Below, piece after piece: positions 5,406 through 25,107 of a stretch of DNA of 32,000 bases. Positions within the stretch are counted from its first letter, which is position 1. Each line of letters opens with the position of its first letter. Below the pieces are notes generated by a model. It was not told the DNA's origin, ran no database searches, and saw only the letters and a program-made list of their open reading frames with translations. Source of the DNA: an uncultured Erysipelotrichaceae bacterium (GTDB lineage: Bacteria; Bacillota_I; Bacilli_A; Erysipelotrichales; Erysipelotrichaceae); the NCBI GenBank assembly GCA_942493105.1, contig OW818668.1:1980001-2012000 (forward strand), read 5' to 3'. A program made the position numbers and the translations under genes.

Positions 5406-5873
5406 ATGGACGACAGCAAACAAGAGCGATATCACGACTTCATGGAAAAATACATGAATCTTCAAAGAATCATGCGTAGGCATCAAAAAGACAAACAAAG
5501 ATGCAATGCTTGGCTCTTGGTTGCCATTCACTCGATCAGTCATGGTGAAGCCGTCATGATTTCTCAAATCAGCTCAAAACTTGAAATCAGTAATGCTGCA
5601 ACGACTCAAATGATCGATACACTTGAAAGTCAAGGATTCGTTGAAAGACAATATGATCATGCTGATCGAAGAGTCACCTTGGTCAAACTAACCAGAGATG
5701 GTGATGCTGCCTTAAAATTTGCATTTATGCAGACAACCACTTATTTAGATGGTTTGTTTGATTTCTTAGGTGAAGAGGATACGTGTAATTTAATAAGATT
5801 AATTGATAAGATGATGGAATATACACTAAAGACTATGGAACCTAGTCTAGAAAAGAAAAAGGAAACATTATGA
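5406..5873 (+). CDS. MarR family transcriptional regulator
   Basis: 155 aa with a winged-HTH pattern (ISQISSKLEISNAATTQMIDTLESQGFVERQYDHADRRVTLVKLT). Its stop overlaps the next ATG (ATGA at 5870..5873). Confidence 0.85.
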   Translation: MDDSKQERYHDFMEKYMNLQRIMRRHQKDKQRCNAWLLVAIHSISHGEAVMISQISSKLEISNAATTQMIDTLESQGFVERQYDHADRRVTLVKLTRDGDAALKFAFMQTTTYLDGLFDFLGEEDTCNLIRLIDKMMEYTLKTMEPSLEKKKETL

Positions 5874-8077
5874 TCCGTTTGAAAAAGTATTTAAAACCTT
5901 TTATCGCTGCCATTGTATTGGCTATTGCTTTATTGTTTGTTCAAGCCTCTGCTGACTTAAATTTACCCAACTATATGTCGGATATCGTATCCATCGGGAT
6001 CCAACAAAAAGGTGTTGCTAATGCATCACCTGAGGCGCTAAGCATAAGCGGTTATGATCTTATTTCTACTTTAGCGACTCTTGATCAAAAAGAATCATTA
6101 AGTTCATCTTATAGCTTGATTACGGAACCTAACCAAGACCAACTCAAGAAATATCCAAACATGTCAGGCAAATCATTTTATGTGCTCAATAGTGACCTGA
6201 CAAAACTTCAGCGTGAAGCATTGGATGTGACTTTTGGTCAAGCTGTTTGGACTTTGATCTCACTAAACTCAGGTCAAGGTAGTTCAGGAGGACCGATGTC
6301 GATGGGCAGTTTGGATATCACCAAACTCTACCAAGCCATTCCAGGTTTAAAAATGTTACCAGCTCCTGTTTTAGAAGCTGCTCAAAACACATCATCAGAT
6401 ATCAGTGATACCTTAAAGAAACAAACCGGCGTCGTGATTGCCCAAGCTTTTTATACAGAATTAGGTGTCGATCTTGAATCCATGCAGATGAAGTATATCT
6501 TCAATACTGGACTATTAATGCTCTTGATTACTTTGATCGGTGCTGTCGCTACCATCTTGGTGGTCTTCTTGTCTTCACGTATTGGTGCTGCTTTATCTCG
6601 CAACTTAAGAAAAGACATCTTCAAAAAGGTAGAGTCTTTCTCTAACGAAGAGTTCGATACTTTTGCCTCATCATCACTAATTACCCGAACAACCAACGAT
6701 GTGACCCAAGTTCAGATGTTGATCACCATGGGTATACGGATCTTGTTTTATGCCCCGATCTTAGCCATTGGGGGGATTTATATGATTCTACAGACCAATG
6801 TCTCCATGGTTTGGATCATTGCCTTGGCTGTCAGCTTATTGATCATGATGATCGCAGGGATCTTTACAGTAGCCGTTCCAAAATTTAAGTTGACTCAGAA
6901 ACTGATCGATCGCTTAAACTTGGTGGCCCGCGAAGGCTTAAGCGGACTTATGGTCGTACGTGCTTTTGGAAATCAAGAATTCGAAGCGAAACGATTCGAT
7001 AAAGCCAATCGTAATTTGGCAGATACTTTACTCTTTGTCAATCGGGTCATGAATCTCTTGATGCCTTTCATGATGTTGATCATGAATCTTACAGTCGTCT
7101 TAATTGTTTGGGTCGGTGCTCATCAGATCGCTGAATCTAATTTACAAATCGGAGATATGCTGGCCTTCATGCAATATGCAATGCAAGTCATCATGGGCTT
7201 CCTTATGATCTCTATGGTCTTTATCATCTTCCCGCGTGCTCAAGTTTCTGCAGTACGTATCGCAGATGTCTTGGCTGTTGAAAACAAAATCGTAGATCCA
7301 AAAGATCCAAAAACTTTCAATCCTCTTCAAACAGGGGTCGTTGAATTTAAAAATGTTTCATTCAGATATGCCAACGCTGTAGAAGATGTCCTTCATGATG
7401 TCAGTTTTAAAGCTCTGCCAGGTCAAACAACCGCATTTATTGGTTCTACAGGTTCTGGTAAGAGTACACTGATCAACTTGATCCCACGCTTCTATGATGT
7501 CACTGAAGGTGCTATTTTAGTCAATGGCGTCGATGTTCGTGATGTAACTCAACATGACCTACATGAAACCATCAGTTATATCCCTCAAAAAGGCATGCTG
7601 CTTTCAGGTTCAGTCAATTTTAACTTAAAGTATGGTAAACGTGAAGCCACCCAAGAAGAAGTCCTCAAAGCCGCTTCAATCGCTCAAGCTGTTGATTTTA
7701 TCTCTCAAAAAGAAGAAGGCTTTGAATCCAATATCGCTCAAGCTGGAGCCAATGTATCTGGGGGTCAGAAACAACGTCTCTCGATTGCCAGAGCTTTGGT
7801 CAAAAATGCACCCATCATTATCTTTGATGACAGTTTCTCAGCCCTAGATTTTAAAACCGATCAGCGTTTACGAGAAGCCCTTCATAAAGAACTGCGTCAG
7901 TCGACCTTATTGATCGTCGCCCAACGGGTATCCACCATCATGAATGCGGATCAAATCATTGTCTTAGAAGACGGAAAAGTTGTTGGTCAAGGAACCCATC
8001 GTGAACTCTTGATCAGTTGTCCTACCTATTATGAAATCGCATCTTCGCAGTTATCTCAGGAGGAATTGGCGTTATGA
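5870..8077 (+). CDS. ABC exporter subunit (TMD-NBD half transporter) with a degenerate NBD
   Basis: Walker A GSTGSGKS and signature VSGGQKQR are present. Walker B is IIIFDDS, with Asp in place of the catalytic Glu (codons 7826..7831). The H-loop reads AQR, with Gln at 7922..7924 instead of His. An unusually long hydrophilic segment lies between TM1 and TM2. Confidence 0.9.
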   Translation: MIRLKKYLKPFIAAIVLAIALLFVQASADLNLPNYMSDIVSIGIQQKGVANASPEALSISGYDLISTLATLDQKESLSSSYSLITEPNQDQLKKYPNMSGKSFYVLNSDLTKLQREALDVTFGQAVWTLISLNSGQGSSGGPMSMGSLDITKLYQAIPGLKMLPAPVLEAAQNTSSDISDTLKKQTGVVIAQAFYTELGVDLESMQMKYIFNTGLLMLLITLIGAVATILVVFLSSRIGAALSRNLRKDIFKKVESFSNEEFDTFASSSLITRTTNDVTQVQMLITMGIRILFYAPILAIGGIYMILQTNVSMVWIIALAVSLLIMMIAGIFTVAVPKFKLTQKLIDRLNLVAREGLSGLMVVRAFGNQEFEAKRFDKANRNLADTLLFVNRVMNLLMPFMMLIMNLTVVLIVWVGAHQIAESNLQIGDMLAFMQYAMQVIMGFLMISMVFIIFPRAQVSAVRIADVLAVENKIVDPKDPKTFNPLQTGVVEFKNVSFRYANAVEDVLHDVSFKALPGQTTAFIGSTGSGKSTLINLIPRFYDVTEGAILVNGVDVRDVTQHDLHETISYIPQKGMLLSGSVNFNLKYGKREATQEEVLKAASIAQAVDFISQKEEGFESNIAQAGANVSGGQKQRLSIARALVKNAPIIIFDDSFSALDFKTDQRLREALHKELRQSTLLIVAQRVSTIMNADQIIVLEDGKVVGQGTHRELLISCPTYYEIASSQLSQEELAL

Positions 8078-9948
8078 GTCAAAATACACAGAATCAAGCC
8101 CCTAAGCGACAAGGCCCAATGGGAGGACCCATGGGTGGTCCTATGGGAATGCGTTCTACCGAAAAAGCCAAAGACATCAAAGGAACACTTAAAAAACTCC
8201 TTAAATTATTGAGTCCTTATTCAGTTGCGTTATTTTTCGTATTATTGTTTGCGATCGCTTCAACCGTATTTACAGTGGTTGGACCTAAGATCTTAGGTGA
8301 AGCTACAACGATTTTGGTTGAAGGCATGATGAAACAAATCACCAATACTGGATCCATTGACTTTGATGGGATTGGTAAGATTATCCTTCTATTGGTTGGC
8401 TTGTATGTGATCAGTGCCTTGTTTATGTACATCCAAGGCTTCCTTATGAGCAAAGTTGCCAATAATATCACTTACAAGTTACGTAAAGATCTTAACAGTA
8501 AGATCGAACGTTTGCCTTTAGCCTATTTTGATAAGCATAATTATGGTCAAGTTTTATCTCATATCACCAATGATGTGGATGCGGTCAACAATTCATTGTC
8601 TCAAGGCATCACGCAACTGATTACTTCTGGGACCTCCATCATCGGGATCTTATATATGATGTTTTCCATCAACTGGCAGATGTCCATCGTCGGATTATTG
8701 GTTTTACCAGTCTCTGTTTTACTGATTGGTTTGATCATGAAATCGTCACAGCGATTCTTCAAGGATCAACAAAAATATCTAGGCATGGTCAACGGCCAAG
8801 TCGAAGAAATGTATTCCAATCACGTCATCGTCAAGGCCTTTAACGGAGAAGCACAAGCCGTTGAGAATTTTACCCAATATAACGATGAGCTTTATGATTC
8901 GGCTTGGAAATCCCAATTCTTCTCAGGTATGATGCAGCCCATCATGGGTTTCATTGGTAACTTAGGTTATGTGGTCGTGGCCATATTGGGCGGCTATTTC
9001 GCTGCTCAAGGCACTTTGACCATTGGTGCCATTCAGTCTTTCATTCAGTATATGCGTTCATTTACACAGCCTATTGCACAGATCGCAGCTCAATCCAATG
9101 CGTTGCAATCTACCATCGCAGCCAGTGAAAAAATATTCTTGTTGCTTGAAGAACCTGAAGAAGCTCCAGACACAGAAAATGCTCTGCCGATCGATGATAT
9201 TCAAGGTGATGTTGGATTTGCACACGTTAAATTTGGATATAGCCCAGAAAAGATCGTCATCAATGACTTCAAGGCACATGTATCCGCTGGTCAAAAAATA
9301 GCCATCGTCGGTCCTACCGGTGCTGGTAAAACAACCATGGTCAAATTGCTGATGCGTTTCTATGATGTCACTGAAGGTGCAATCTTGGTTGATGGTTTAG
9401 ATATTCGCCAGTTTAAACGCAATGACCTCAGAACCTTATTTGGGATGGTCCTACAAGACACCTGGCTCTATAATGACACCATCCGCGAAAACATCCGCTA
9501 TGGACGTCTGGAGGCTACAGATGAAGAAGTTCATCAAGCTGCTAAAATGGCTCAGGTTGATCACTTCGTTCAAACTTTGCCTAATGGTTACGATATGATC
9601 CTTAATGAAGATTCTTCAAACATCTCAACAGGTCAAAAGCAGTTGATGACCATCGCTAGAGCCATCTTAGCCAATCCAAAAGTTTTGATCCTAGATGAAG
9701 CAACCTCTTCAGTCGATACCAGAACAGAAATCCTGATTCAAAAAGCCATGGATATCTTGATGGAAGGCAGGACCAGTTTCATCATTGCCCATCGTTTGTC
9801 CACCATCCGTAATGCAGATCTCATCTTGGTCATGAACTTAGGTGACATCGTAGAATCGGGTACCCATGACGAACTTTTGGCCAAAGGCGGTTTCTATGCC
9901 AATCTATACAACAGTCAATTCGAAGCCGGAGAAGAAGAATTCGCGTAA
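8074..9948 (+). CDS. ABC exporter subunit (TMD-NBD half transporter) with a consensus NBD
   Basis: Walker A GPTGAGKT, Walker B LILDEATS and H-loop IAHRLS are canonical. The signature is degenerate, ISTGQ (9622..9636). The start overlaps the upstream stop (ATGA). Confidence 0.9.
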   Translation: MSQNTQNQAPKRQGPMGGPMGGPMGMRSTEKAKDIKGTLKKLLKLLSPYSVALFFVLLFAIASTVFTVVGPKILGEATTILVEGMMKQITNTGSIDFDGIGKIILLLVGLYVISALFMYIQGFLMSKVANNITYKLRKDLNSKIERLPLAYFDKHNYGQVLSHITNDVDAVNNSLSQGITQLITSGTSIIGILYMMFSINWQMSIVGLLVLPVSVLLIGLIMKSSQRFFKDQQKYLGMVNGQVEEMYSNHVIVKAFNGEAQAVENFTQYNDELYDSAWKSQFFSGMMQPIMGFIGNLGYVVVAILGGYFAAQGTLTIGAIQSFIQYMRSFTQPIAQIAAQSNALQSTIAASEKIFLLLEEPEEAPDTENALPIDDIQGDVGFAHVKFGYSPEKIVINDFKAHVSAGQKIAIVGPTGAGKTTMVKLLMRFYDVTEGAILVDGLDIRQFKRNDLRTLFGMVLQDTWLYNDTIRENIRYGRLEATDEEVHQAAKMAQVDHFVQTLPNGYDMILNEDSSNISTGQKQLMTIARAILANPKVLILDEATSSVDTRTEILIQKAMDILMEGRTSFIIAHRLSTIRNADLILVMNLGDIVESGTHDELLAKGGFYANLYNSQFEAGEEEFA

Positions 9949-9986: not shown

Positions 9987-10015
9987 ATAAGGTTGTGGTA
10001 TGATTTTAAGGAACT

Positions 10016-10726
10016 ATGGAAAGACTCAACGTCCTTATCGCTAGAACTGGTTTATGTTCTAGACGCCAAGCAGATACCTACATCATTGAAAAACGAGTGA
10101 CCGTCAACGGTCAACTCGCTGTTTTAGGTATGCAGATCTCAGAAGAAGATCTGGTTCTTCTTGATGGAGCTCCTCTTGGGAAAAAAGCCCCCCATGTACT
10201 ATTGGCCTATCATAAGCCCAAAGGCATCACTTGTACGACTGATAAAGCCATACAAGGCAATATCATCGATGCGATCAAATATCCCATCCGTATCTTTCCT
10301 ATTGGTCGATTGGATAAAGATTCTGAAGGACTGATTCTACTCACATCAGATGGAGACATCGTTAATAAGATCCTCAGAGCTGAAAATGATCATGAGAAAG
10401 AATACTACGTCAAAGTCAATGCGCCTTTGATGGGCGACTTCAAAGAAATCATGGAAGACGGGGTTGAAATCTTCAATCCTGTTAAAAATCAAAACACAGT
10501 GACTTTACCATGTAAAGTTAAAGTCATCAACGAACAATCTTTCTATATTACCCTGAGCCAAGGTCTGAATCGTCAAATCAGAAGAATGGTTGCGACTTTA
10601 GGCTATCGTGTCGTTTACCTAAAACGTGTTCGAATCATGCATATTCATCTGGATAACTTAGCTAAAGGCGAATACAGGCTTTTAAGCGATTCTGAAACAA
10701 GGATCCTATACGAATCTATATCTTAA
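10016..10726 (+). CDS. rluF: 23S rRNA pseudouridine synthase, RluF-like (RsuA family)
   Basis: N-terminal S4 domain (RLNVLIARTGLCSRRQAD), catalytic GRLDKDSEGLILLT, and NKILRAENDHEKEYYV plus QGLNRQIRRM, which closely match my recollection of E. coli RluF. Confidence 0.8.
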   Translation: MERLNVLIARTGLCSRRQADTYIIEKRVTVNGQLAVLGMQISEEDLVLLDGAPLGKKAPHVLLAYHKPKGITCTTDKAIQGNIIDAIKYPIRIFPIGRLDKDSEGLILLTSDGDIVNKILRAENDHEKEYYVKVNAPLMGDFKEIMEDGVEIFNPVKNQNTVTLPCKVKVINEQSFYITLSQGLNRQIRRMVATLGYRVVYLKRVRIMHIHLDNLAKGEYRLLSDSETRILYESIS

Positions 10727-10727
10727 A

Positions 10728-10748
10728 AAAAGGAGCTCTGCTCCTTTT
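10728..10748. terminator. Bidirectional terminator between convergent genes
   Basis: AAAAGGAGC-TCT-GCTCCTTTT. Confidence 0.7.
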
Positions 10749-11418
10749 AAAATCCCCTGTTTTGACCTCGATAAGGCGCTTCTTTATTGGCTATGTATTC
10801 ATCGATGCCAGGCCCATTAAGTGTTTTCAAGCGCCATATCCCATAGATGTAACTGAGCACTAAAATAATGATTGTAGTAGGCAGTCCCATTAATGTATTG
10901 GCCCAACCCAATTGACTGACATCATTTTGAGAATACAAAGTTAATTGGATCGTAGTTCTCATCAAGAAGAAGATGGTCCAAATCCAGGTCACTTCTCGAT
11001 AAGCAGGTTTAATCGACTTCAACCAAAACCAATCTAATTTCCAACCTCGACTGATATGACTTGCATATGCAGCCATTGGTTTATCAACAACCAATGAAAC
11101 AATCGCCAATAACAATATAAAAGCATTACTGATGATGCCTGGCAAAAAATAATTCGTCGCATTATCGGCAATCAAAGCCATACTGCCTGCTAAAATAACG
11201 CTCACTAAACCACCAAAAGCATACCCCCAACTTTGTTTGCGTGTTATGCACAAAACTCCAAAACCAAAAGCAGTTAACCCTGCCCCAAATACCGCACTCA
11301 ACAAACCAAATTGTCCATTAATGATAATAAACAACAATGGCGGTAATACCGCATCCAGTGTTTTACCTGATAAAACAGATCTTAACTCTTGAATGATCTC
11401 TAATCCCAATTTTCTCAT
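10747..11418 (-). CDS. Hypothetical integral membrane protein (about 6 TM)
   Basis: 223 aa, hydrophobic. I could not assign a confident family by eye. Confidence 0.6.
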   Translation of the reverse strand: MRKLGLEIIQELRSVLSGKTLDAVLPPLLFIIINGQFGLLSAVFGAGLTAFGFGVLCITRKQSWGYAFGGLVSVILAGSMALIADNATNYFLPGIISNAFILLLAIVSLVVDKPMAAYASHISRGWKLDWFWLKSIKPAYREVTWIWTIFFLMRTTIQLTLYSQNDVSQLGWANTLMGLPTTIIILVLSYIYGIWRLKTLNGPGIDEYIANKEAPYRGQNRGF

Positions 11419-11494
11419 ATTTCTCTTTTCATGATCAGCAATGACTCTACTTTAAATAAATAAGCATGACAAGTCAACTTAAGCGACCATAACC

Positions 11495-12334
11495 CTATAT
11501 CCACGAATATTGAAAGAAAAGCAAGATGATACCCAATACAAAACTGGCCATGTTGGCAACCAAAGCATAGAGTATCCTACGACCCGTTTTCTTTTTCTTA
11601 TCAAATAACAACCAGCACACCAAACCTTCAAACAACCAAATGAAGCCTTCACAAAAAATCAAGACAAAGACGGCACTTACCAACCCAGCTCTGATCAAGG
11701 TTGTCCCTAAAACGATTGTCAATCCAATTTGAGTAACAAGATTCATAATCAAGAAAACTCTAAAGTTGTGTTTCGTAAATAGTCCAAACATGAGTAAGAT
11801 CAAGCCTTCTAGAATCAATGTAGGAATCAGTGTACTGATAAATTGCAGCCCATAAGCGACCATTAAATTTGGTTTGGTTATCTTCCCGCTTTCAGCATCA
11901 AATTGAATCGACATATAGAATGAATCCATCGTTAGCGTTTCGCTGACCGTGATCTTACCACTTTGGGTAACCATGATGATTCTAAATTGATCAGGGATCC
12001 GATAACCAAATTTGTGGATCATTTTTTCACCATTTTGATCACCAATCAAATCACCAAACAAAGGCACTAGAGTACCTCTAACCAAAGCTGGATACCAGCC
12101 TTGACCTTCAAGAGATCTCAAGTTTTCGATCATGCCTGGATTCAATTGATCGATCTCATGTTCATTTTGACCTAGATAAGAGGATCTTACTAAGAGATCT
12201 AAATAGTATGGCTCATCCGGAGCATGATTAACTGTAATTTTCAGCTCAGGTTTAGGACCAGCATCTGCATAAACAAGGATCGTAGAACCAAATAAGAATA
12301 TAAATATTCCACACATGATCCACAGTTTTTTCAT
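11495..12334 (-). CDS. Hypothetical protein: signal peptide, about 150-aa extracytoplasmic domain and a C-terminal multi-TM domain
   Basis: Signal peptide ...STILVYA|DAGPKP. The C-terminal half is hydrophobic, with Glu-Gly pairs inside the helices (LILEGLILL, FCEGFIWLFEGLV). AGAGG SD upstream. Confidence 0.6.
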   Translation of the reverse strand: MKKLWIMCGIFIFLFGSTILVYADAGPKPELKITVNHAPDEPYYLDLLVRSSYLGQNEHEIDQLNPGMIENLRSLEGQGWYPALVRGTLVPLFGDLIGDQNGEKMIHKFGYRIPDQFRIIMVTQSGKITVSETLTMDSFYMSIQFDAESGKITKPNLMVAYGLQFISTLIPTLILEGLILLMFGLFTKHNFRVFLIMNLVTQIGLTIVLGTTLIRAGLVSAVFVLIFCEGFIWLFEGLVCWLLFDKKKKTGRRILYALVANMASFVLGIILLFFQYSWI

Positions 12335-16719: not shown

Positions 16720-16728
16720 TGGTATAAT
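16720..16728 (+). promoter_or_regulatory. Extended -10 promoter of the pilus operon
   Basis: TGGTATAAT (TGn + TATAAT). Only 6 nt separate it from the ATG at 16735, and there is no SD-like sequence. Confidence 0.5.
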
Positions 16729-16734
16729 AAGTTT

Positions 16735-17226
16735 ATGAAATCATCCATAAATCATAAAGCGGGCACAACTTTTCTTGAAGTGTTAATTGCCTTATTTATA
16801 TTTACCCTCATGGTAAGTGCAGTTTTTCCTGTGTTCATGTCCACTCGTAGAATGGACCTTTATTCCAAAGCTTTTACTGAAGCTAGACAAATGGCTCAGA
16901 CACGAATTGAATGGATTTATTCCCAATCTCAAAATTATGGATACTTGGATACTTTATATCAACTCAGTACGACAGAATCTTTTGCATGCAATGGATTCAC
17001 TTGGACTGTTGATACAACAACTTTAGAAATCTTATATAATGAACCTACATCCGTAGTTACATGTACCAAGACCAGTGCTCCTTTTGTTATAGAATTGATT
17101 TTCACCAAAGACGATGAGATCCTTACTGAAGATTTTGTCGATATTAAAGTAACTGTGAATGATGTTAGAACATCCACAACCATCAAACTCTATGAGACCC
17201 TCTATGCGACTGGCTTTATCCAATAA
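16735..17226 (+). CDS. Type IV pilin-like protein (prepilin-type N-terminus)
   Basis: Leader MKSSINHKAG followed by TTFLEVLIALFIFTLMVSAVF. Gly is at -1, Glu at +5, then a hydrophobic alpha1-N helix. Two Cys residues (C85, C110). Confidence 0.8.
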   Translation: MKSSINHKAGTTFLEVLIALFIFTLMVSAVFPVFMSTRRMDLYSKAFTEARQMAQTRIEWIYSQSQNYGYLDTLYQLSTTESFACNGFTWTVDTTTLEILYNEPTSVVTCTKTSAPFVIELIFTKDDEILTEDFVDIKVTVNDVRTSTTIKLYETLYATGFIQ

Positions 17227-17659
17227 ATCTAGAGCAGGTTTCACCCTGTTAGAGTTGATCGTCGCCATGGCTGTTTTTTCTATATTAGGATCCGTTTTGG
17301 TCAGCATCTTTGTGGCAGGCGTTCAGTATTTCTCAAACGAGAAATCACAACTTTATAATCAGTTTGGCATCACCGAACTCTCAGGTGCTCTTGAATCAGA
17401 TGCCCGTAAAGCAAGTGCTGCAAGCACAAGCTCTGGTTGTTTGGTATTTACGATCTCAAATGGAAACACTACATATTGCCTCAATACAACGACTCATGTT
17501 GTAACACGCAATTCTAATGTGGTTGCAGATCATATTTCGAGTTTTAGTTTTACCATTACATTAAATAAGTTGAACTTAGTCGTGACCAGTACCAATGATC
17601 AACGAGGCATCAACAATCAGATCAATTTGACCTATTACTTAAGGGAAGGTAATTATTGA
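17204..17659 (+). CDS. Type IV minor pilin-like protein (prepilin-type N-terminus)
   Basis: MRLALSNKSRAG|FTLLELIVAMAVFSILGSV is a canonical G|FTLxE class III signal. The start could be 17192 or 17204; the ORF-track start at 17159 would give an implausibly long leader. It overlaps the upstream gene's end. Confidence 0.8.
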   Translation: MRLALSNKSRAGFTLLELIVAMAVFSILGSVLVSIFVAGVQYFSNEKSQLYNQFGITELSGALESDARKASAASTSSGCLVFTISNGNTTYCLNTTTHVVTRNSNVVADHISSFSFTITLNKLNLVVTSTNDQRGINNQINLTYYLREGNY

Positions 17660-19149
17660 TGATAAAAGTTTTAAAAGAAAAACGAGGCATTGCCCTGTTG
17701 ACTGTCATGTTGACCTTTTTAAGTTTGTTTATTTTATTATCTGCAATAGTTTCTCTGTCGATAAACAATGCTGACAATACCATTACGACCAATAACTATT
17801 CAAAAGCATATTATGTTGCTGAATCTACACTCAATAAACGACTGGCTGAAATCGATACGATTTTCACCACTTTGGCAGACACAAATCCAAATCCCAATGA
17901 TTTATTCACATTACTTGAAAATCGGTTTAGTACTTTGCCTTCACAATTAACATTCGAACAGACTTCAGACAATGATTCAGCAACCCTATCTTTCATTGCC
18001 TCTGAAGGAACCTATGAATATCCAAATTACGTATTTTATAAATTGGTGGTGACCGGAACCGTAAATAATGTCAGCAGAACCTTATCCAAAGAAATTGGTT
18101 TCTCATATACACAAGGCGGACCTGGATTGATCATCGGTAAAGCGGTTTTGACCCAACGCGGGATGATCATAGGAGATCAGAAATCAACGATCATTGGACC
18201 AATTGCCAGTAACTTACTTGATAATACCACCATCGATATTAAGTCGACTCAAGATCAAATCCCAATGGTGTTTGTCCCGACCTCAAAGTCTTCCTATGTA
18301 CTAAATCAAACAAGGATTGGAAAGCGAATCACCGAAGTGGCAAGTCCTTTCATCTTTCCAGTTATAAATTATCCAGTTATTCCAACTTCATCTCCGACTT
18401 TGATTGCTCCTTATACTTTCGTAAACAATAAGGCAACCATCAATGTCTTTGGTTATTCATATCTTGATTCAATGACCGTTGCTCAAGGACAAACCTTAGT
18501 AATAAATTTAGGTACAAAAGGAACGTCAGGAACTCGGAAAATGTTGCGTGTCAAAGACATCAATGTTTCCGGAAATATTCGTGTCATCGGTACAGGAAGG
18601 CTCTTGTTGGTCTTTGAATATGGAAAAGGGACCCTAAACATGGGCTCAAAATTCAATGTTTGTGGTGATACCATTGGTAGTTGTGTCACCGCAGATCCAG
18701 ATTATACGAAATTCTTGTTTTATCTAAAAACTCCTTATGTAACCAAAGGTGATTTAGCGAATTATCCAAAACTTGTTTTCTCAAACCTACATTTATTCTA
18801 TGGCTCACTCTTAGCAGAATACGTAGATGTTGAAGTCAAAAGCGATAACTTCAAAGGACATATTGTCACTTCAGGAAATACGGTTAATTTTTCAGCCAAC
18901 TCTGTCATTAAAAAAGCACTGTTCTATGCTCCTTTTGCAACCATGACGATAGATTCTAATGCGGTACTTACAGGTTCACTTGTTGCCAATTACTTTACGA
19001 TTTCTAATCCGCAAACCATGGTTACTTATGTTGAAGTAGATAAAGAAACTTTCCCTTTCAGTATCGACTTCCCTACTACCTCAACCAGCGACTATGTGCC
19101 AGGCAGTATTGATATCATTGAAGGACCCGTTCAGGAGAACAACCCATGA
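17659..19149 (+). CDS. Large PilX/GspK-like minor pilin lacking Glu5; candidate tip or adhesin subunit
   Basis: The N-terminus MIKVLKEKRG|IALLTVMLTFLSLFILLSAIV is PilX_N-like, with Thr rather than Glu at +5. It is about 496 aa. The C-terminal half has recurring G(S/H)hh(A/T) turns (YGSLLAEYVDV, GHIVTSGNTVNF, TGSLVANYFTI) that suggest a beta-helix. The ATG overlaps the upstream TGA (TGATG). Confidence 0.65.
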   Translation: MIKVLKEKRGIALLTVMLTFLSLFILLSAIVSLSINNADNTITTNNYSKAYYVAESTLNKRLAEIDTIFTTLADTNPNPNDLFTLLENRFSTLPSQLTFEQTSDNDSATLSFIASEGTYEYPNYVFYKLVVTGTVNNVSRTLSKEIGFSYTQGGPGLIIGKAVLTQRGMIIGDQKSTIIGPIASNLLDNTTIDIKSTQDQIPMVFVPTSKSSYVLNQTRIGKRITEVASPFIFPVINYPVIPTSSPTLIAPYTFVNNKATINVFGYSYLDSMTVAQGQTLVINLGTKGTSGTRKMLRVKDINVSGNIRVIGTGRLLLVFEYGKGTLNMGSKFNVCGDTIGSCVTADPDYTKFLFYLKTPYVTKGDLANYPKLVFSNLHLFYGSLLAEYVDVEVKSDNFKGHIVTSGNTVNFSANSVIKKALFYAPFATMTIDSNAVLTGSLVANYFTISNPQTMVTYVEVDKETFPFSIDFPTTSTSDYVPGSIDIIEGPVQENNP

Positions 19150-20330
19150 AATTCTATAAAGTGACGGCCGTAACCGAAACAGGAGCACGTAAGACAGAAG
19201 TCATTGCTTCTGAAAATGTCGAAGAGATCTATGAAAGTCTAAAAGAGCGTTCTTTGTTTTTAGTCGATTATAAACAAGTTGCTAAATCAGGCAAGAATAA
19301 AATGAAGACTCGAGAATTAATCATATTTACGCGTCAATTAAGTGCGATGATCGATGCTGGGGTTGCCATTTTAAAAGGCATCACGATCATTCAAAACAGC
19401 ACAAAAGATCCTAAAGTCAAAAAACTCTATCAAAATTTGACTCAAGAAATCCAAAAAGGCAATTCTTTATCTGTCGCAATGCGTAAACAAAGCGGAGCAT
19501 TTCCTGATATCTTGATTAATATGGTTGTTGCAGGTGAAATGGGTGGTACGCTTGAGAAATCTTTATTGTTGATGTCCATGCATTTTGAGAAGGAACAAAA
19601 ACTAAAGAATAAAATCAAAGGGGCTTCCACATATCCAATCATATTGGGGGTCATCGCTGTTTCTGTCGTTATTTTGTTGATGACCTTTGTCTTGCCTACC
19701 TTGACCCAAATGTTTGATCCTGGAACCTTGCCCCCTCTGACTGCCTTTGTGATGGGAATCAGCCACTTTCTTACGACGTATTGGTTTATCTATATTCCTG
19801 CAGTATTCATTCTAATCACGGGCTTTATTGCTTTATTACGGGTTCCTTCATTTAGATTGAAGTTTGATTACTTTATCTTAAAGATGCCCGTTATTGGACC
19901 ATTAAATCAAACCATCTATTCAGCCAGATGTGCACGTTCTTTCGCATCCCTATATTTAAGTGGAATACAAACCATCCCAATGATTCAATCCACTGCTCAA
20001 ATTCTAGGTAATTCCTACATCGAAAGTCTATTTGATGAAGTGGTCATGCGGGTATCCCATGGTGAAATCATCTCCAAGGCTTTAGAAGACATGGGAGTCT
20101 TTGATCCTATGCTCAGTTCAATGGTCAATGTGGGTGAAGAAACTGGTGCTCTTGGTGATATCTTGGTTCGTACAGCCGATTACTTTGATGAGGAAGCAGA
20201 TACAGCCTTGTCTAAAATGGTCGCTTTGGTTGAACCGATCATGCTGGTACTTATGGGGATCATCATTGGGGTTATCGTTGTATCTGTAATTCAGCCTATG
20301 TTTGCTATGTATGATCAGATCGGAAACTAA
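19146..20330 (+). CDS. pilC: Type IV pilus platform protein PilC (GspF family)
   Basis: 394 aa with two T2SSF-type repeats (FTRQLSAMIDAGVAILKGI...; FASLYLSGIQTIPMIQ...) and 3 TM segments. The ATGA overlaps the upstream gene. Confidence 0.9.
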   Translation: MKFYKVTAVTETGARKTEVIASENVEEIYESLKERSLFLVDYKQVAKSGKNKMKTRELIIFTRQLSAMIDAGVAILKGITIIQNSTKDPKVKKLYQNLTQEIQKGNSLSVAMRKQSGAFPDILINMVVAGEMGGTLEKSLLLMSMHFEKEQKLKNKIKGASTYPIILGVIAVSVVILLMTFVLPTLTQMFDPGTLPPLTAFVMGISHFLTTYWFIYIPAVFILITGFIALLRVPSFRLKFDYFILKMPVIGPLNQTIYSARCARSFASLYLSGIQTIPMIQSTAQILGNSYIESLFDEVVMRVSHGEIISKALEDMGVFDPMLSSMVNVGEETGALGDILVRTADYFDEEADTALSKMVALVEPIMLVLMGIIIGVIVVSVIQPMFAMYDQIGN

Positions 20331-20342
20331 GAGGTAAAAATC

Positions 20343-21818
20343 ATGCTCATTATCGAAATTAGAGACAATTCCCTAATCATCATTCAGTCCTCTTCAAAGC
20401 TGAATACATTTAGAATCACAGATTCTAAAACCATAGAATTTGAAGACAGTTGGAAAGCCTATATCTCCAATCCTGAAAATTCAGCCAACTTAACCCAAAC
20501 TTTAAAATCTTATAAGGAAAGTAAATTCTTTCTATGCTTAAACAACAGCAGTGTGATCTATCGCGATATGGTTGTTCCAAAAGCCAGTCCTCGCTATCTT
20601 ACTGCCTTGATTCGTCATGAACTAACGCATACTTTAAATCTTAGCAATGATTTTCTAATGGATTATACAATTTTAGGAGATACTTTAAGTAATGGCAAAA
20701 AAATGCAGAAGATCCTTGTCGCAACCATACTGGCCTCAAATCTAAACGAGATCCTAGAATACTTTGAAAAGATCGGTCTACAGATTTCTAAAGTCGATGT
20801 TTCACTAAACAGTCTTATGAAATATGTCGACATCACAAAAATTGCCAGTAAAGAAAAAAACACTTTGATAACAGACATCAGTTCAAATTCGATTCGTCAG
20901 TATTTATTTGAAAAAGGTAAATACAGCTATTACAGAACAACCAAAATCACAGCTTATCAAGAATCAGAGGAACAACTTAGTTTAGAAAGTACAACCGAAA
21001 TCATAGAAAAAATGCTTCAATTTTCTTTATCTCTGGGTCAAAATTCTGGTATTGATCAAATCTACCTGTTTGGATCTTATCCTAAAATCGAACATCTTAA
21101 AATTTATATGAATGAAACCCTTAATGTTGATACACAGGTCATTTCTAGACCCAAAATCCTACATGAGACCAAACGCAAACCATTCAATCATGTTTTTATC
21201 TATGCTTTAGGATTACTCTTTTCACAACGCTTCAAACGTAAAAAAGACATCAATTTGATATCACCGTATAATGTCTTTTACTCTAAAAGCGCAAATGCCA
21301 TCAACTTTGATGCGATCTATAATTCTTTAGCCTTTGGATTAGGTTATCTTGCTTTATTTGGAATCGTCATCACGACTCTTCAAACCAATGCCGTCAATGC
21401 CAACATTAAAAAAATCAATGATTATTTTAATCGTCCTGACATCATACAAGCTTTAAGCGAAATCTCTGAAATGAAGGCCACGATTGCTTCACTTAATGAG
21501 ATCACAAAGGAGCTCGATAGTATTCAACTTGTCCTTGACAGTATCCCCCGCTATACCGATCTTAAAATTCAAGATCTGATCTTGATCAAACCTACAGGTG
21601 TTGATTTTAGTAAAATTGCCTTTATTGATAATGTCATTACGATTTCAATCATAGCAGAAGACCCAAGTATGATTTATGAATATGTACTAGAACTTAGTGA
21701 AGTAGAAACCTTTAGTAAGGTAACCTATACCAGTTATCAAATGGAGACCAATTCCAAAAAATATACATCAGAGATTCATTTGACATTAAGCGAGGAAACT
21801 AGCCATGAAAATAACTAA
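20343..21818 (+). CDS. PilM-PilN fusion protein (GspL-like architecture)
   Basis: Residues 1 to about 300 follow the actin-like PilM pattern (IIEIRDNSLIII; ITDISSNSIRQY; IYLFGSYPKIEHLKIYMNETLN). This is followed by KKDINLISPY (compare the PilN INLLP motif), one TM segment (LAFGLGYLALFGIVITTL), a coiled coil, and a PilN-like C-terminal domain. Confidence 0.7.
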   Translation: MLIIEIRDNSLIIIQSSSKLNTFRITDSKTIEFEDSWKAYISNPENSANLTQTLKSYKESKFFLCLNNSSVIYRDMVVPKASPRYLTALIRHELTHTLNLSNDFLMDYTILGDTLSNGKKMQKILVATILASNLNEILEYFEKIGLQISKVDVSLNSLMKYVDITKIASKEKNTLITDISSNSIRQYLFEKGKYSYYRTTKITAYQESEEQLSLESTTEIIEKMLQFSLSLGQNSGIDQIYLFGSYPKIEHLKIYMNETLNVDTQVISRPKILHETKRKPFNHVFIYALGLLFSQRFKRKKDINLISPYNVFYSKSANAINFDAIYNSLAFGLGYLALFGIVITTLQTNAVNANIKKINDYFNRPDIIQALSEISEMKATIASLNEITKELDSIQLVLDSIPRYTDLKIQDLILIKPTGVDFSKIAFIDNVITISIIAEDPSMIYEYVLELSEVETFSKVTYTSYQMETNSKKYTSEIHLTLSEETSHENN

Positions 21819-22452
21819 AAAAGACATCATGTATCTGAAGTGGCTTGGTCTATTTTTGGGCATCTATGTCTTTTGGACTTACTTATGGTTACCCATGAGT
21901 ACAACATTGAGTACTAAACAAGTTCAGCTTCAAGAACTTGAAACTCGATATATGGTCGCTGAACAAACGATACCGACACGAAATACGGTTAAAAATCTAG
22001 AGATGGATGCGAAAGCAAAAGCCAAACTCAAATTCGAACAATTCTTTGATGTGCTTACACCGGCTCAAACAGAAGCAATCTTAGTTCCCATCATCAAAGC
22101 ACATCGAGCTAAAATAAGTTACTTTCAAGTTTCTGATGCACAAGTCGTCGTACCTGAAACTACATTGAAACTTGAAGAACAACTTAGCTACAAAATCAAA
22201 GAATTGATTGATCTCTACAACAATATGACCACACAAGATCCTAAGCTTCCGATCACTCAGTCTCAACTGCTAAAAACACAGATCACGTATTTGGTCGATG
22301 TATCTTTTGAAGACTATAAAGCTTTATTAAAGACCATTGATGATATGGAAGTAACGATCCTGCTTTCATCTTCTGAGTATGATTTCAATGATAAGGTTGC
22401 AGAAATGGTATTTGATATTTATTCTATAGAAAAAATAGATTTCGTCCAATAA
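21805..22452 (+). CDS. PilO-like bitopic pilus alignment protein
   Basis: 215 aa with a short cytoplasmic N-terminus, one TM segment (WLGLFLGIYVFWTYLWLP), a coiled coil (QVQLQELETRY...) and a globular C-terminal domain. The call rests on position and topology only. Confidence 0.5.
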   Translation: MKITKKDIMYLKWLGLFLGIYVFWTYLWLPMSTTLSTKQVQLQELETRYMVAEQTIPTRNTVKNLEMDAKAKAKLKFEQFFDVLTPAQTEAILVPIIKAHRAKISYFQVSDAQVVVPETTLKLEEQLSYKIKELIDLYNNMTTQDPKLPITQSQLLKTQITYLVDVSFEDYKALLKTIDDMEVTILLSSSEYDFNDKVAEMVFDIYSIEKIDFVQ

Positions 22453-22544
22453 GAAAATCTTGATCATCTAAAATGTCCCATTATTTCATAAAGGCGTTTT
22501 TTGATGTAAAATGAAGCTTAGAAAACAAACACAGAGGTCCGTTT

Positions 22545-24203
22545 ATGAAGCATGCATCCCTAGAAGAAATGCTCGTCAATGAAAAGATCATTACTCAAGC
22601 TCAATTAGAAGAAGTCAATCTGATTCAGAAAGAAACAGGTCAGGCTACTTTTTATATCATCCTAGATCATCAGTTTGCCAAAGAAAAAGATGTTTTAAGA
22701 ATCCTTGCTAAAAGTCTAAAAATGGATTTTGTTGACAACCTCATCAACAACATCAACACAGATGTGATACGTTCTTTTCCACAACAATTGGCTCAAAAAT
22801 ATAAAATGTGCCCTTTAAGAGTTCATGAAGGAACCCTTACATTGGCTACCAGCAATCCATTTAACGTTACCGCAATAGAAGACATCAGTATGCTGATTGG
22901 ACTCTCTATCAACACAGTATTGTCTACCAAGACCGATATTGAAGTAGCCATCGATCGTCTTTATACAAAACGCAGTGAAAAGAATGAGCAAGGTGAAGAC
23001 ATCGCCAATGAAGGTGATGAAGCTGAAAACGAAGCAACCGTAGAAACATCATCTGTAGTTAGGATCGTAAACAATCTGATCATCGATGCGTATAAAGTCA
23101 ATGCCAGTGATATCCATATTGAACCAGAAGCCAACTTTACCAGAGTACGATTCAGAGTTGATGGTGATCTAATAAAGCATATCGATTTCGATAAAGAAAA
23201 ACACTCTTTGATTTCTACCCGCATCAAGATCTTATCTGGCCTTAACATCGCAGAAAAACGCTTGCCTCAAGATGGCAGTTTCCAATTCAACCATGACTTT
23301 AAAAAAATAGACATCCGAGTATCTACCTTACCAACCCCTTATGGCGAAAATATCGTCATGCGTCTTTTAGGGGCTGATCAAAACATCGAGTATTCATTGT
23401 CTGGTTTAGGAATTTCTCCCGCAACGATCATGACCATTGAGAAAGCCATTCGTGTTCCTCATGGGATCATTTTGGTCACAGGACCTACCGGTTCAGGTAA
23501 GACCACGACCTTATATTCGATCTTAGCGAAATTAGCAGTTCCTACCAAAGCCATAAAGACCGTTGAAGATCCCATAGAACGAAAATTTGAAGGCATCACT
23601 CAAGTTCAAGTCAACCAAAAAGCTGGTTTGACTTTTGCGGCTGGTCTACGTTCAATTTTACGTCAAGATCCTGATATCATCATGATCGGTGAGATTCGTG
23701 ATACAGAAACCGCAGAAATCGCCATCAGATCTGCCATTACCGGTCACTTGGTCTTATCGACCATCCATACCAATGATGCTTTATCTTCAGTCATACGTTT
23801 GGTCGATATGGGCATTGAGCCTTTTAAAGTAGGATCCTCATTGGTCTGTATTATTTCACAACGTTTGGTTAAAAAGATCTGTGTCCACTGTAAGAAAAAA
23901 GTTGACATAAGCACAACTGAAGCTCGTTTACTCGCGACTGATTTAACCTATGTGTATGAAGGTGCAGGTTGTCCAAAATGCAACAATACCGGATATAGCG
24001 GCCGCTTAGCTGTCTTTGAGATCGTCTTGATTGATGGACACCTAGAAGATTTGATTTCTCGTGGTGCTTCATTAGAAGACCTTAGAAACTATGCTAAAGA
24101 GAAGAAGATCCCAATGTTGAGAGATGAAGTTATGAACTATGTTCAAATTGGAACAACTACTGTAGAAGAAGCCTTACGTATCTTATATAATGTTGAAAAC
24201 TAA
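22545..24203 (+). CDS. pilB: Type IV pilus extension ATPase PilB (GspE family)
   Basis: GspE_N-like N-terminus, Walker A GPTGSGKTTT, Walker B/Asp box DPDIIMIGEIRD, His box GHLVLSTIHTN, and a tetracysteine motif CVHC...CPKC. Confidence 0.92.
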   Translation: MKHASLEEMLVNEKIITQAQLEEVNLIQKETGQATFYIILDHQFAKEKDVLRILAKSLKMDFVDNLINNINTDVIRSFPQQLAQKYKMCPLRVHEGTLTLATSNPFNVTAIEDISMLIGLSINTVLSTKTDIEVAIDRLYTKRSEKNEQGEDIANEGDEAENEATVETSSVVRIVNNLIIDAYKVNASDIHIEPEANFTRVRFRVDGDLIKHIDFDKEKHSLISTRIKILSGLNIAEKRLPQDGSFQFNHDFKKIDIRVSTLPTPYGENIVMRLLGADQNIEYSLSGLGISPATIMTIEKAIRVPHGIILVTGPTGSGKTTTLYSILAKLAVPTKAIKTVEDPIERKFEGITQVQVNQKAGLTFAAGLRSILRQDPDIIMIGEIRDTETAEIAIRSAITGHLVLSTIHTNDALSSVIRLVDMGIEPFKVGSSLVCIISQRLVKKICVHCKKKVDISTTEARLLATDLTYVYEGAGCPKCNNTGYSGRLAVFEIVLIDGHLEDLISRGASLEDLRNYAKEKKIPMLRDEVMNYVQIGTTTVEEALRILYNVEN

Positions 24204-24206
24204 ACT

Positions 24207-24235
24207 AAAAGTGCCAAAAATGGCACTTTTATTCT
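24207..24235 (+). terminator. Rho-independent terminator of the pilus operon
   Basis: AAAAGTGCCA-AAAA-TGGCACTTTT followed by a T-rich tail. Confidence 0.85.
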
Positions 24236-24327: not shown

Positions 24328-25107
24328 ATGGACATTAAATTTCAAAAGCTTAGACGTTTTAACTTAATCATGGGTCTATTTCATTTAGTTCAAGGGGTAG
24401 CCATGTTGTTTCTGGCAACCAGTGTGATTCAAAAAATCGCAGCATTTCAACCTACAGTCGTTCAGTATTTCTTACAATTCAATTTAGCAACACAATCTTT
24501 GGAACCAGCCGTTAAAGATTTGTTCCAGTTGCCCTTTGGCATCTTGGTTGCCAGTTTCTTATTGATTTCAGCGCTTGCACATGGTTTGATCTATCTCAGC
24601 GGTGATAAATACATCAATGATCTAAAGAAAGGCATCAATCAATTCCGTTGGTTTGAATATGCTTTCAGTTCTTCCATCATGATCGTCTTGATTGCTACCC
24701 TATTTGGCGTTTACGATATTGGCTCACTTGTTTTAATTTTCTTGGTCAATGCAGCCATGAATCTGTTTGGTTTAGATATGGAACTCATCAATGCCGGAAC
24801 TAAAAAAGAAAAAGTAAACTGGGGTCCATTTATTTGGGGTTCAGTCGCAGGCTTAGCACCTTGGATCGTCATCTTATTGTATATGTTTGGCTCTGGTAAT
24901 TTCGATATGACCCCATGGTTTGTATGGGCCATCGTCGGGACCTACTTCGTTGCCTTCAATACCTTCCCCATCAACATGATCCTGCAATACAAACGTGTTG
25001 GAAAGTGGAAAGATTACCTCTACGGAGAACGTGTCTATATCATCTTAAGTTTAGCTGCTAAATCGATCTTGGCTTGGTTGGTTCTGTTTGGAGCCATGCA
25101 GCCTTAA
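24328..25107 (+). CDS. Heliorhodopsin
   Basis: 259 aa with 7 hydrophobic helices. Motifs FNLIMGLFHLVQ (His19), SALAHG (His85), FRWFEYAFSSSIMIVLIA (Glu110), LVNAAMNLFG, LAPWIVILLY and GERVYIILSLAAKSILAW (Lys245, codon 25060..25062) line up with my recollection of heliorhodopsin 48C12 (FRWVEYSLSSSVMIVLIA; GERAYIVLSLVAKSALAW, where the Lys forms the Schiff base). AAAGGAG SD upstream. Confidence 0.88.
   Translation: MDIKFQKLRRFNLIMGLFHLVQGVAMLFLATSVIQKIAAFQPTVVQYFLQFNLATQSLEPAVKDLFQLPFGILVASFLLISALAHGLIYLSGDKYINDLKKGINQFRWFEYAFSSSIMIVLIATLFGVYDIGSLVLIFLVNAAMNLFGLDMELINAGTKKEKVNWGPFIWGSVAGLAPWIVILLYMFGSGNFDMTPWFVWAIVGTYFVAFNTFPINMILQYKRVGKWKDYLYGERVYIILSLAAKSILAWLVLFGAMQP

Follow-up and report, generated by a model that had tools for sequence, protein, structure and literature searches.

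The window analysed here is a 32,000-nucleotide stretch of an uncultured Erysipelotrichaceae bacterium (assembly GCA_942493105.1, contig OW818668.1, positions 1,980,001 to 2,012,000 of the forward strand), and between its positions 16735 and 24203 it holds seven genes that specify parts of a type IV filament machine. In this report, we find that these genes probably constitute a reduced type IVa pilus assembly operon of the monoderm (Gram-positive) kind, a trimmed form of a cluster found in a sister group of the same order; we place the probability of this assignment at roughly 0.7. The products are, in order, three pilin-like proteins (g1 to g3), the platform protein PilC (g4), a fusion of PilM and PilN (g5), a PilO-like protein (g6) and the extension ATPase PilB (g7). 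On this assignment, the operon is a trimmed and rearranged version of a known system in an unstudied lineage.

The machinery genes have the hallmarks of a type IVa apparatus. The product of g7 (22545-24203) comprises an MshEN N-terminal domain (Pfam, E = 5e-16) and a T2SSE domain (E = 2e-125), and it has the motifs of a PilB, namely Walker A and Walker B (residues 313 and 378), the Asp and His boxes (341 and 399) and a tetracysteine motif (CVHC...CPKC). The g4 protein (19146-20330) has three hydrophobic segments and two T2SSF repeats (E = 6e-53) and is 48-49% identical to the PilC of the sister group. A match to PilM_2 (E = 1e-10) is followed in the 491-residue g5 protein (20343-21818) by a weak match to PilN (E = 0.016), and the protein is laid out as an actin-like cytoplasmic PilM portion (about residues 1-295), a single transmembrane segment (about 324-347) and an extracellular PilN domain. 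The g6 gene (21805-22452) encodes a bitopic protein of 215 residues; its Pfam match to T2SSM (E = 4.8e-5) lies below cut-off, and in tblastn it aligns to PilO of the sister group with E values of 1e-13 to 6e-10. The constituents of a PilM/PilN/PilO subcomplex are therefore present, the Pfam evidence for PilN and PilO being weak and their orthology to separate sister genes clear. PilM, PilN and PilO are described as type IVa-specific (PMC6916266, citing Denise 2019).

The sister group was reached through PilB. The closest relatives of g7, at 72-95% identity, belong to metagenome-assembled genomes (MAGs) of uncultured Erysipelotrichaceae from lakes (the Loclat, La Plata and Erken bins) and other environmental metagenomes; we call the loci with PilB identity of at least 70% the window clade. 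The next-closest PilB proteins, at 57-60%, come from Erysipelothrix-like MAGs. In a tree made with neighbour-joining, a fast distance method, the window clade forms one monophyletic group and the sister group another, and jointly they are monophyletic with respect to diderm PilB proteins; every one of these groupings was recovered in 200 of 200 bootstraps. Three types of sister locus were obtained. In L075 and in L076/L077 the order is p1-p2-pX-PilC-PilM-PilN-PilO-PilB-PilT-short pilin, in which pX is a PilX_N/DUF7305 protein of about 500 residues, the short pilin has 111-113 residues and the cleavage region KKG/FTLIELIVVIAILA (a slash marks the cleavage site), and pilD lies antisense in the gap between pilO and pilB. 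In L080 the order is PilC-PilM-PilN-PilO-PilB-PilT-PilA, with minor pilins and PilD downstream, such that this locus shares only the PilC-PilM-PilN-PilO-PilB core with the window. Among these minor pilins of L080 (14122-18232) is a 484-residue pilin with a von Willebrand A domain, which recalls the modular pilins of Streptococcus sanguinis. All three types have separate PilM and PilN, PilT and a pilin of 111-120 residues directly after PilB, and PilD within the cluster, and two of the three have the gene order of the window. None of these sister clusters (L075, L076, L077 and L080) is described in the literature that we searched.

The genes of the window and those of the sister loci correspond one to one in tblastn. 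The separate sister PilM and PilN align to residues 2-295 and 299-466 of g5, some 3 residues apart, and map to window positions 20346-21227 and 21237-21740. The 92-bp spacer between the g6 and pilB genes (22453-22544) occupies the place at which the antisense pilD stands in L075, L076 and L077. Because all three sister types have separate PilM and PilN along with PilD, PilT and PilA, parsimony leads us to infer that in the window clade pilM became fused to pilN, and that pilD, pilT and the short pilin gene were either lost or moved elsewhere. Separate PilM and PilN are usual in other Bacillota.

These comparisons alter the standing of several features that the preliminary description of this DNA had taken as signs of a distinct machine. 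Judged from the gene orders, the last place of the ATPase follows from the loss of PilT and the short pilin at the 3' end; relative to the sister PilB-PilT-pilin order it is a truncation, and it does not mark a separate kind of machine. The placement of the pilins at the front of the operon is atypical to the extent that the minor pilins of L080 lie downstream, but pilins also come first in L075 and L076/L077. The two-polypeptide alignment complex, which had been likened to GspL and GspM of type II secretion systems (T2SS), traces to a lineage-specific fusion of genes that are separate in the sisters, and such a fusion has already been described in C. difficile (PMC6916266). The resemblance to GspL/GspM is convergent. 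A distinct machine is also difficult to reconcile with gene-for-gene orthology to sister clusters that carry PilD, PilT and a 111-120-residue pilin, or with the presence of the type IVa-specific PilM, PilN and PilO. In the synteny comparison that had been called for, the reduced form is kept throughout the window clade, and a fuller cluster of the same order exists in the sisters.

The three pilin-like proteins merit separate consideration. The g1 gene (16735-17226) encodes a 163-residue prepilin with the cleavage region KAG/TTFLE, Glu5 included, and it appears to be a minor pilin of the GspI/PilV/ComGE type. Its match to the Pfam N_methyl family (E = 0.0023, 17.9 bits) falls under the cut-off of 21.2, as do its NCBIfam matches to ComGE (E = 4e-6) and PilV (E = 0.002); it is orthologous to sister p1 (tblastn against L075, E = 1.8e-9). 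The g2 gene (17192-17659) encodes a prepilin of about 151-155 residues with RAG/FTLLE, by its appearance a minor pilin of the ComGF/GspJ type. It matches N_methyl (E = 1.5e-7) and exceeds the cut-off of NCBIfam TIGR02532, aligns over its full length to ComGF below cut-off (E = 3.4e-5) and is orthologous to sister p2 (tblastn against L075, E = 4e-16). The 496-residue product of g3 (17659-19149) takes the position of a PilX/GspK-like tip pilin. Its cleavage region, RG/IALLTV, has Thr instead of Glu at +5, its N-terminus matches ComGG weakly and below the NCBIfam cut-off, and its large C-terminal beta-rich domain, which is like ice-binding proteins, matches DUF7305 (Pfam, E = 9.5e-5). All three proteins have class III signal peptides; across the clade, Gly-1 is conserved in each of them and Glu5 in g1 and g2, so that g1 and g2 show the full motif of type IVa pilins. 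A sequence search of the PDB matched g1 and g2 to geopilins over the N-terminal helix only.

Structure prediction was informative for g3. A single-sequence AlphaFold2 model of g2 was unusable (predicted local distance difference test, pLDDT, 49.7); an AlphaFold2 model of g3 (pLDDT 82.5) has a long N-terminal helix, a small sheet and a large beta-rich domain. Its best fold match in the PDB (Foldseek, E = 4e-7, probability 1.0) is the Thermus ComZ structure 6QVI, and the solenoids of ice-binding proteins come next. The g3 model therefore has the architecture of ComZ, a pilin helix and sheet followed by a large beta-solenoid, and by its predicted fold g3 is a ComZ-like tip pilin. According to its own paper, ComZ shows these two likenesses as well, and a location at the tip and DNA binding have been argued for it (PMC6561018). 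The proposal in the preliminary description that the pilin-like genes form a minor-pilin or tip module is borne out by the weak matches of ComGE/PilV, ComGF and ComGG type, by the ComZ-like fold of g3 and by the occurrence of the same trio alone in a bacillus; the evidence supports a tip module like GspI/J/K.

That bacillus is Alteribacter natronophilus (Bacillaceae; VCRO01000002.1, L081 9154-12166), which has genes for proteins of 130, 153 and 484 residues homologous to g1, g2 and g3, the last with PilX_N and DUF7305. A DsbA-like gene follows them, and no machinery genes adjoin. Because the trio also stands alone here, the tip module behaves, on gene content, as a portable three-gene cassette in Bacillota. 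A word-based search found g3 homologs within the window clade only; a profile search found 1572 clusters at 50% identity, nearly all of 450-570 residues, and where a source is named it belongs to the Bacillota. Annotations were looked up for a few members of the family; most of these are labelled hypothetical or DUF7305 only, and the Alteribacter protein is named "PilX N-terminal / DUF7305".

The operon is kept throughout the window clade. All 8 complete loci have the same seven-gene order, and four loci truncated by contig ends (L001, L004, L005 and L008) are collinear as far as they are present; a twelfth fetched clade locus, L070, holds only the 3' end of pilB. The flanking genes of L002-L005, L010 and L011 are as in the window, L006 and L007 have one set in common, and L009, L078 and L079 each have their own. 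The recurrence of one order in every complete locus indicates an operon and not a chance arrangement. Further, when the window is compared with L003, dN/dS (the ratio of nonsynonymous to synonymous substitution rates) lies at 0.05-0.20 in each of the seven genes, with the highest value in g1 (0.20), and synonymous sites are saturated; as judged from these ratios, all seven are under purifying selection. The ratio for g3 is 0.055, a constraint on a par with that of PilB and PilC, and such strong constraint hints at a conserved ligand for this protein. At a PilB identity of 73%, g3 is 59% identical, as compared to 27% for sister pX (L075/L076) at a PilB identity of 65%, the sister figure being from a single pair. 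Relative to PilB, g3 evolves about half as fast as its sister counterpart, and PilMN evolves relatively faster. In L011 (a MAG, CAXXCK01), pilB (10001-11655) aligns as two overlapping pieces, residues 1-355 and 353-552, which may reflect a frameshift or a long-read assembly error; with that exception, the window and every complete relatives' locus have all seven open reading frames (ORFs) intact.

The arrangement of the genes in the window is as the preliminary description had it. The seven co-oriented ORFs on the forward strand were all found at the positions it gave, and the ORF table and Pfam show every gene call of the operon, with its overlaps, short gaps and terminator, to be correct. 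Overlaps join g1 to g2 (23-35 nt), g2 to g3 (1 nt), g3 to g4 (4 nt) and g5 to g6 (14 nt); a gap of 12 nt separates g4 from g5, and the 92-nt spacer precedes pilB. The start of g2 may be the ATG at 17192 or that at 17204, both Met codons being conserved, and the g3 ATG at 17659 shares one base with the stop codon of g2. Within the spacer lie a weak promoter-like site (22485-22512) and a ribosome-binding site, AGAGG. An intrinsic terminator with an 11-bp stem, a 4-nt loop and a T-rich tail follows pilB at 24206-24231 on the forward strand.

Upstream of g1, an extended -10 promoter box, TGGTATAAT, was read from the sequence at 16720-16728 on the forward strand; a simple two-hexamer promoter scan did not list it. 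Boxes of the form TGnTATAAT precede g1 in six of nine relatives' loci (L002, L003, L006, L007, L010 and L011), L078 and L079 have one-base variants (TGATATAAT and TGGTATGAT), and in L009 no clear extended -10 box was found upstream of g1. The box ends 6 nt 5' of the g1 ATG, and there is no Shine-Dalgarno sequence before g1 in the window (16720-16737); these two facts suggest a g1 transcript that is leaderless or nearly so. The g1 leaders of the relatives are 3-25 nt long, some with AAGGAG. Thus far, the sequence evidence indicates that the operon is real, functional and transcribed from a conserved signal.

Three components of a typical pilus system are missing from the locus. The earlier statement that the window contains no prepilin peptidase, no PilT and no separate short major pilin was upheld by three methods: Pfam searches of the other ORFs of at least 100 codons in the 32-kb window gave no match to a peptidase A24, PilT or pilin family; a six-frame scan of the window for prepilin motifs found no further prepilin; and tblastn of sister PilD, PilT and short pilin against the window gave nothing beyond cross-matches with pilB and g2. 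That the cleavage motifs are conserved implies a prepilin peptidase gene somewhere in the genome. A major pilin is probably also encoded elsewhere in the genomes of the clade, and PilT may be as well, though we consider its presence somewhat less likely than its absence. There is precedent for such an arrangement: pil operons of Gram-positive bacteria are highly variable, some are devoid of pilT, and most Gram-positive bacteria that carry pilT have a further pil operon from which it is missing (PMC3244431). Piliation does not require PilT (PMC6916266).

Several results weigh against the type IVa assignment or parts of it. None of the seven proteins reaches an NCBIfam equivalog cut-off. The global TM-score between the g3 model and ComZ is low (0.23), despite the high Foldseek probability. 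The preliminary description had allowed that the missing genes might lie just outside the window, but PilD, PilT and the short pilin are also absent from the 10-kb flanks of the operon wherever relatives' loci extend past it (10 loci). In a PilT profile search of 5.8 billion proteins, no operon-bearing contig, including those of 1.24, 0.83 and 0.77 Mb, appeared among the best 120 matches listed (at least 539 bits and at least 56% identity), in a protein set from which at least one complete genome of the clade (OW818653.1) seems to be missing. The two clades are reciprocally monophyletic, and the argument for loss rather than gain is therefore one of parsimony. Finally, adhesion, DNA capture and motility are all candidate roles for the filament.

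Some of these facts could be accommodated by a self-contained pseudopilus that functions independently of PilT, in which g1 and/or g2, formerly minor pilins, would build a short fibre capped by g3, a peptidase would be borrowed from a Com system, and the whole would serve as a DNA receptor or adhesin. The lack of a short pilin or PilT in every window-clade locus, and of a PilT ortholog on the large contigs of the clade among the PilT matches listed, is as this proposal predicts. Com and T2SS machines work without PilT. Also in its favour are the place of g1 directly after a strong conserved promoter, the constraint on g3, which equals that on PilB and PilC, its relatively higher conservation than that of sister pX, and the predicted likeness of g3 to a DNA-binding protein. 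On the other hand, the sister orthologs of g1 and g2, p1 and p2, are minor pilins, and the overlap of g1 with g2 implies coupled and roughly equal expression, a pattern not usually seen in a major subunit. Pilus genes are often scattered, as the separation of the Alteribacter trio from machinery genes illustrates, and the absence of a KKGFTLIELIVVIAILA-type short pilin and of pilT covers the loci, their flanks and the listed PilT matches. We consider the pseudopilus unlikely. The stronger form of the idea, that the major pilin, PilT and the dedicated peptidase are really gone from the clade, leaving it with a seven-gene, PilT-independent pseudopilus bearing a highly conserved ComZ-like receptor cap, is improbable; if true, it would make these freshwater or environmental monoderms living intermediates between a type IVa pilus and a pseudopilus of the Com or T2SS style.

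Other classes of machine fare less well. A DNA-uptake apparatus of the ComG pseudopilus family would account for the weak matches of g1, g2 and g3 to ComGE, ComGF and ComGG and for the ComZ-like tip pilin, but the core proteins do not fit it. The g7 protein scores 266 bits on the NCBIfam ComGA model (cut-off 300) and g4 scores 135 on ComGB (cut-off 240), far under their scores on GspE (535, cut-off 630) and PilB (525, cut-off 676) and on GspF (314, cut-off 424) and PilC (257, cut-off 700), respectively. The ComGA model aligns to residues 177-443 of g7 only, and g7 has an N-terminal MshEN domain, which canonical ComGA is not known to have. Moreover, PilM, PilN and PilO are present, no ComGC-like pilin comes first, and neither the ComGA and ComGB equivalogs nor the comGA-GG order was found. 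A Com machine is thus very unlikely. Still less credence can be given to a T2SS-like secretion pseudopilus in a monoderm, built from GspE, GspF and proteins like GspL and GspM. The slightly higher scores of g7 and g4 on the GspE and GspF models than on PilB and PilC, the match of g6 to T2SSM and the GspL-like topology of g5 speak for it, yet all of the scores lie below the equivalog cut-offs, and against the PDB g7 scores about 400 bits with PilF/PilB and 346 with GspE. Further, g5 arose recently by the joining of PilM to PilN, two separate genes in the sisters, and the sister clusters carry PilT. The locus has no secretin, GspC, GspG or GspH, and the set that defines a T2SS (GspE and GspF equivalogs, GspC, GspD, GspG, GspL and GspM) was not found. 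The presence of PilM, PilN and PilO, the sub-cut-off NCBIfam scores and the preference for PilF/PilB over GspE in the PDB are the reasons for which we file the operon under type IVa and not under Com or T2SS. As to a decaying pilus remnant without function, the absence from the locus of three components that are normally essential or typical and the apparent frameshift in L011 pilB might raise the suspicion. The intact ORFs of the window and of the complete relatives' loci (L011 pilB excepted), the dN/dS values of 0.05-0.20 at saturated dS and the conservation of the promoter box and cleavage motifs are hardly compatible with it, and the selection analysis effectively refutes it.

Seven translationally coupled genes are driven by the conserved extended -10 promoter, and for the reduced type IVa pilus we propose the following course of events. 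The g1, g2 and g3 proteins would be cut by a prepilin peptidase encoded elsewhere. The three processed pilins would form a complex like GspI/J/K that primes assembly on PilC and ends at the filament tip, where the beta-solenoid of g3 would be exposed and serve as the adhesin or receptor. PilMN and PilO would keep PilB at the membrane, and PilB would supply the power for polymerising a major pilin whose gene lies outside the operon. In the ancestor of this arrangement, pilM and pilN presumably were not yet fused, pilD stood in antisense orientation in the pilO-pilB gap, and pilB was followed by pilT and a short pilin gene.

Several known systems bear comparison with this one. The PilV, PilU and PilK proteins of C. 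difficile are three minor pilins, including a large one without Glu5, a set like the window trio. The clusters of C. difficile (pilA1-pilB1-pilC1-pilMN-pilO-pilV-pilU-pilK-pilT-pilD) and C. perfringens are likewise type IVa systems of monoderms with PilB, PilC and PilM/N/O and without a secretin, and the former shares the PilM-PilN fusion with the window (PMC6916266). Compared by gene content and order, the window differs from the clostridial clusters in its permuted arrangement, in which the trio of minor pilins leads and the ATPase closes the operon, and in having no pilA, pilT or pilD in or near the operon. S. sanguinis also is a monoderm with a type IVa pilus, PilM/N/O and modular minor pilins onto which adhesion domains are grafted (PMC4832360, PMC6916266); unlike the window, its locus has pilD, pilT, two major pilins and another gene order.

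The closest parallel to the g3 model is ComZ/PilA2 of Thermus thermophilus (6QVI; PMC6561018), in which a GspK-like pilin domain carries an ice-binding-like beta-solenoid, as predicted for g3. The genes of both proteins adjoin those of small minor pilins, and both proteins are too bulky for the body of a fibre, which implies a location at the tip. The differences are that g3 and ComZ are 10-12% identical in sequence with a low global TM-score, that the host of the window is a monoderm, that DNA binding is, for g3, a candidate property, and that Thermus has a secretin and PilT, both of which the window operon lacks. The T2SS also offers a pilin trio in which two small members have Glu5 and a large one lacks it (GspI-GspJ-GspK), as well as an actin-like bitopic protein with a small bitopic partner (GspL/GspM). 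However, g5 arose when PilM and PilN fused, GspC, GspD, GspG and GspH are lacking, and the domain inserted in g3 is a beta-solenoid where that of GspK is alpha-helical.

Some observations concern the regulation of PilB and the surroundings of the operon. The MshEN domain of g7 (residues 1-60; 22545-22730) has a degenerate motif for the binding of cyclic di-GMP (NF053729, 23 bits against a cut-off of 38), with the key Arg and Gly replaced; we therefore reject control of this PilB by that nucleotide. In the sister loci L076 and L077, a gene for a GGDEF cyclase lies just past the short pilin (L076 13328-14380). Control by cyclic di-GMP may have been lost along with PilT and PilA. About 7 kb upstream of the operon, at 5406-9948, the window has a MarR regulator and a pair of ABC exporters. 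An exporter pair stands directly upstream of the pilus cluster in L075 (1-2941) and L080 (1150-5146, with MarR upstream of the pair), and the pairs of window and sisters are 36-43% identical and in the same order. This pattern suggests that the pilus locus stayed in the same chromosomal neighbourhood.

Apart from that regulator and those exporters, the remaining ORFs of at least 100 codons in the window are unrelated by Pfam to pilus genes; among them are a Na+/H+ exchanger, an alpha/beta hydrolase, a heliorhodopsin, a PTS IIA protein and a DEAD helicase. The heliorhodopsin gene (PF18761, E = 4e-94; 24328-25107, forward strand) begins 125 bp past the pilB stop codon and 97 bp past the terminator stem, and has its own AGGAG ribosome-binding site. 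Its adjacency to pilB is kept in L002-L005, L010 and L011 and not in L006-L009, L078 or L079. Membership in the operon is ruled out by the position after the terminator, the separate ribosome-binding site and the absence of the adjacency in half of the clade; because the adjacency is not kept, heliorhodopsin and pilB are probably functionally unlinked as well.

Type IV pili of monoderms have been studied in few species. In the literature that we searched, no paper deals in substance with type IV pili of Erysipelotrichaceae or of Erysipelothrix, none mentions DUF7305, and we found no published work on the pili of Erysipelotrichales. The window operon is a naturally minimised set comprising a tip module, PilC, a PilMN fusion, PilO and PilB, and its clade, set against the fuller sister cluster, provides a clean test of the parts needed for pilus assembly. 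The g3 protein extends the "pilin plus beta-solenoid" design of the ComZ type to a family of about 500 residues and some 1,570 clusters. Finally, the comparison of the two clades shows how PilM-PilN fusions originate and a possible route from pilus to pseudopilus.

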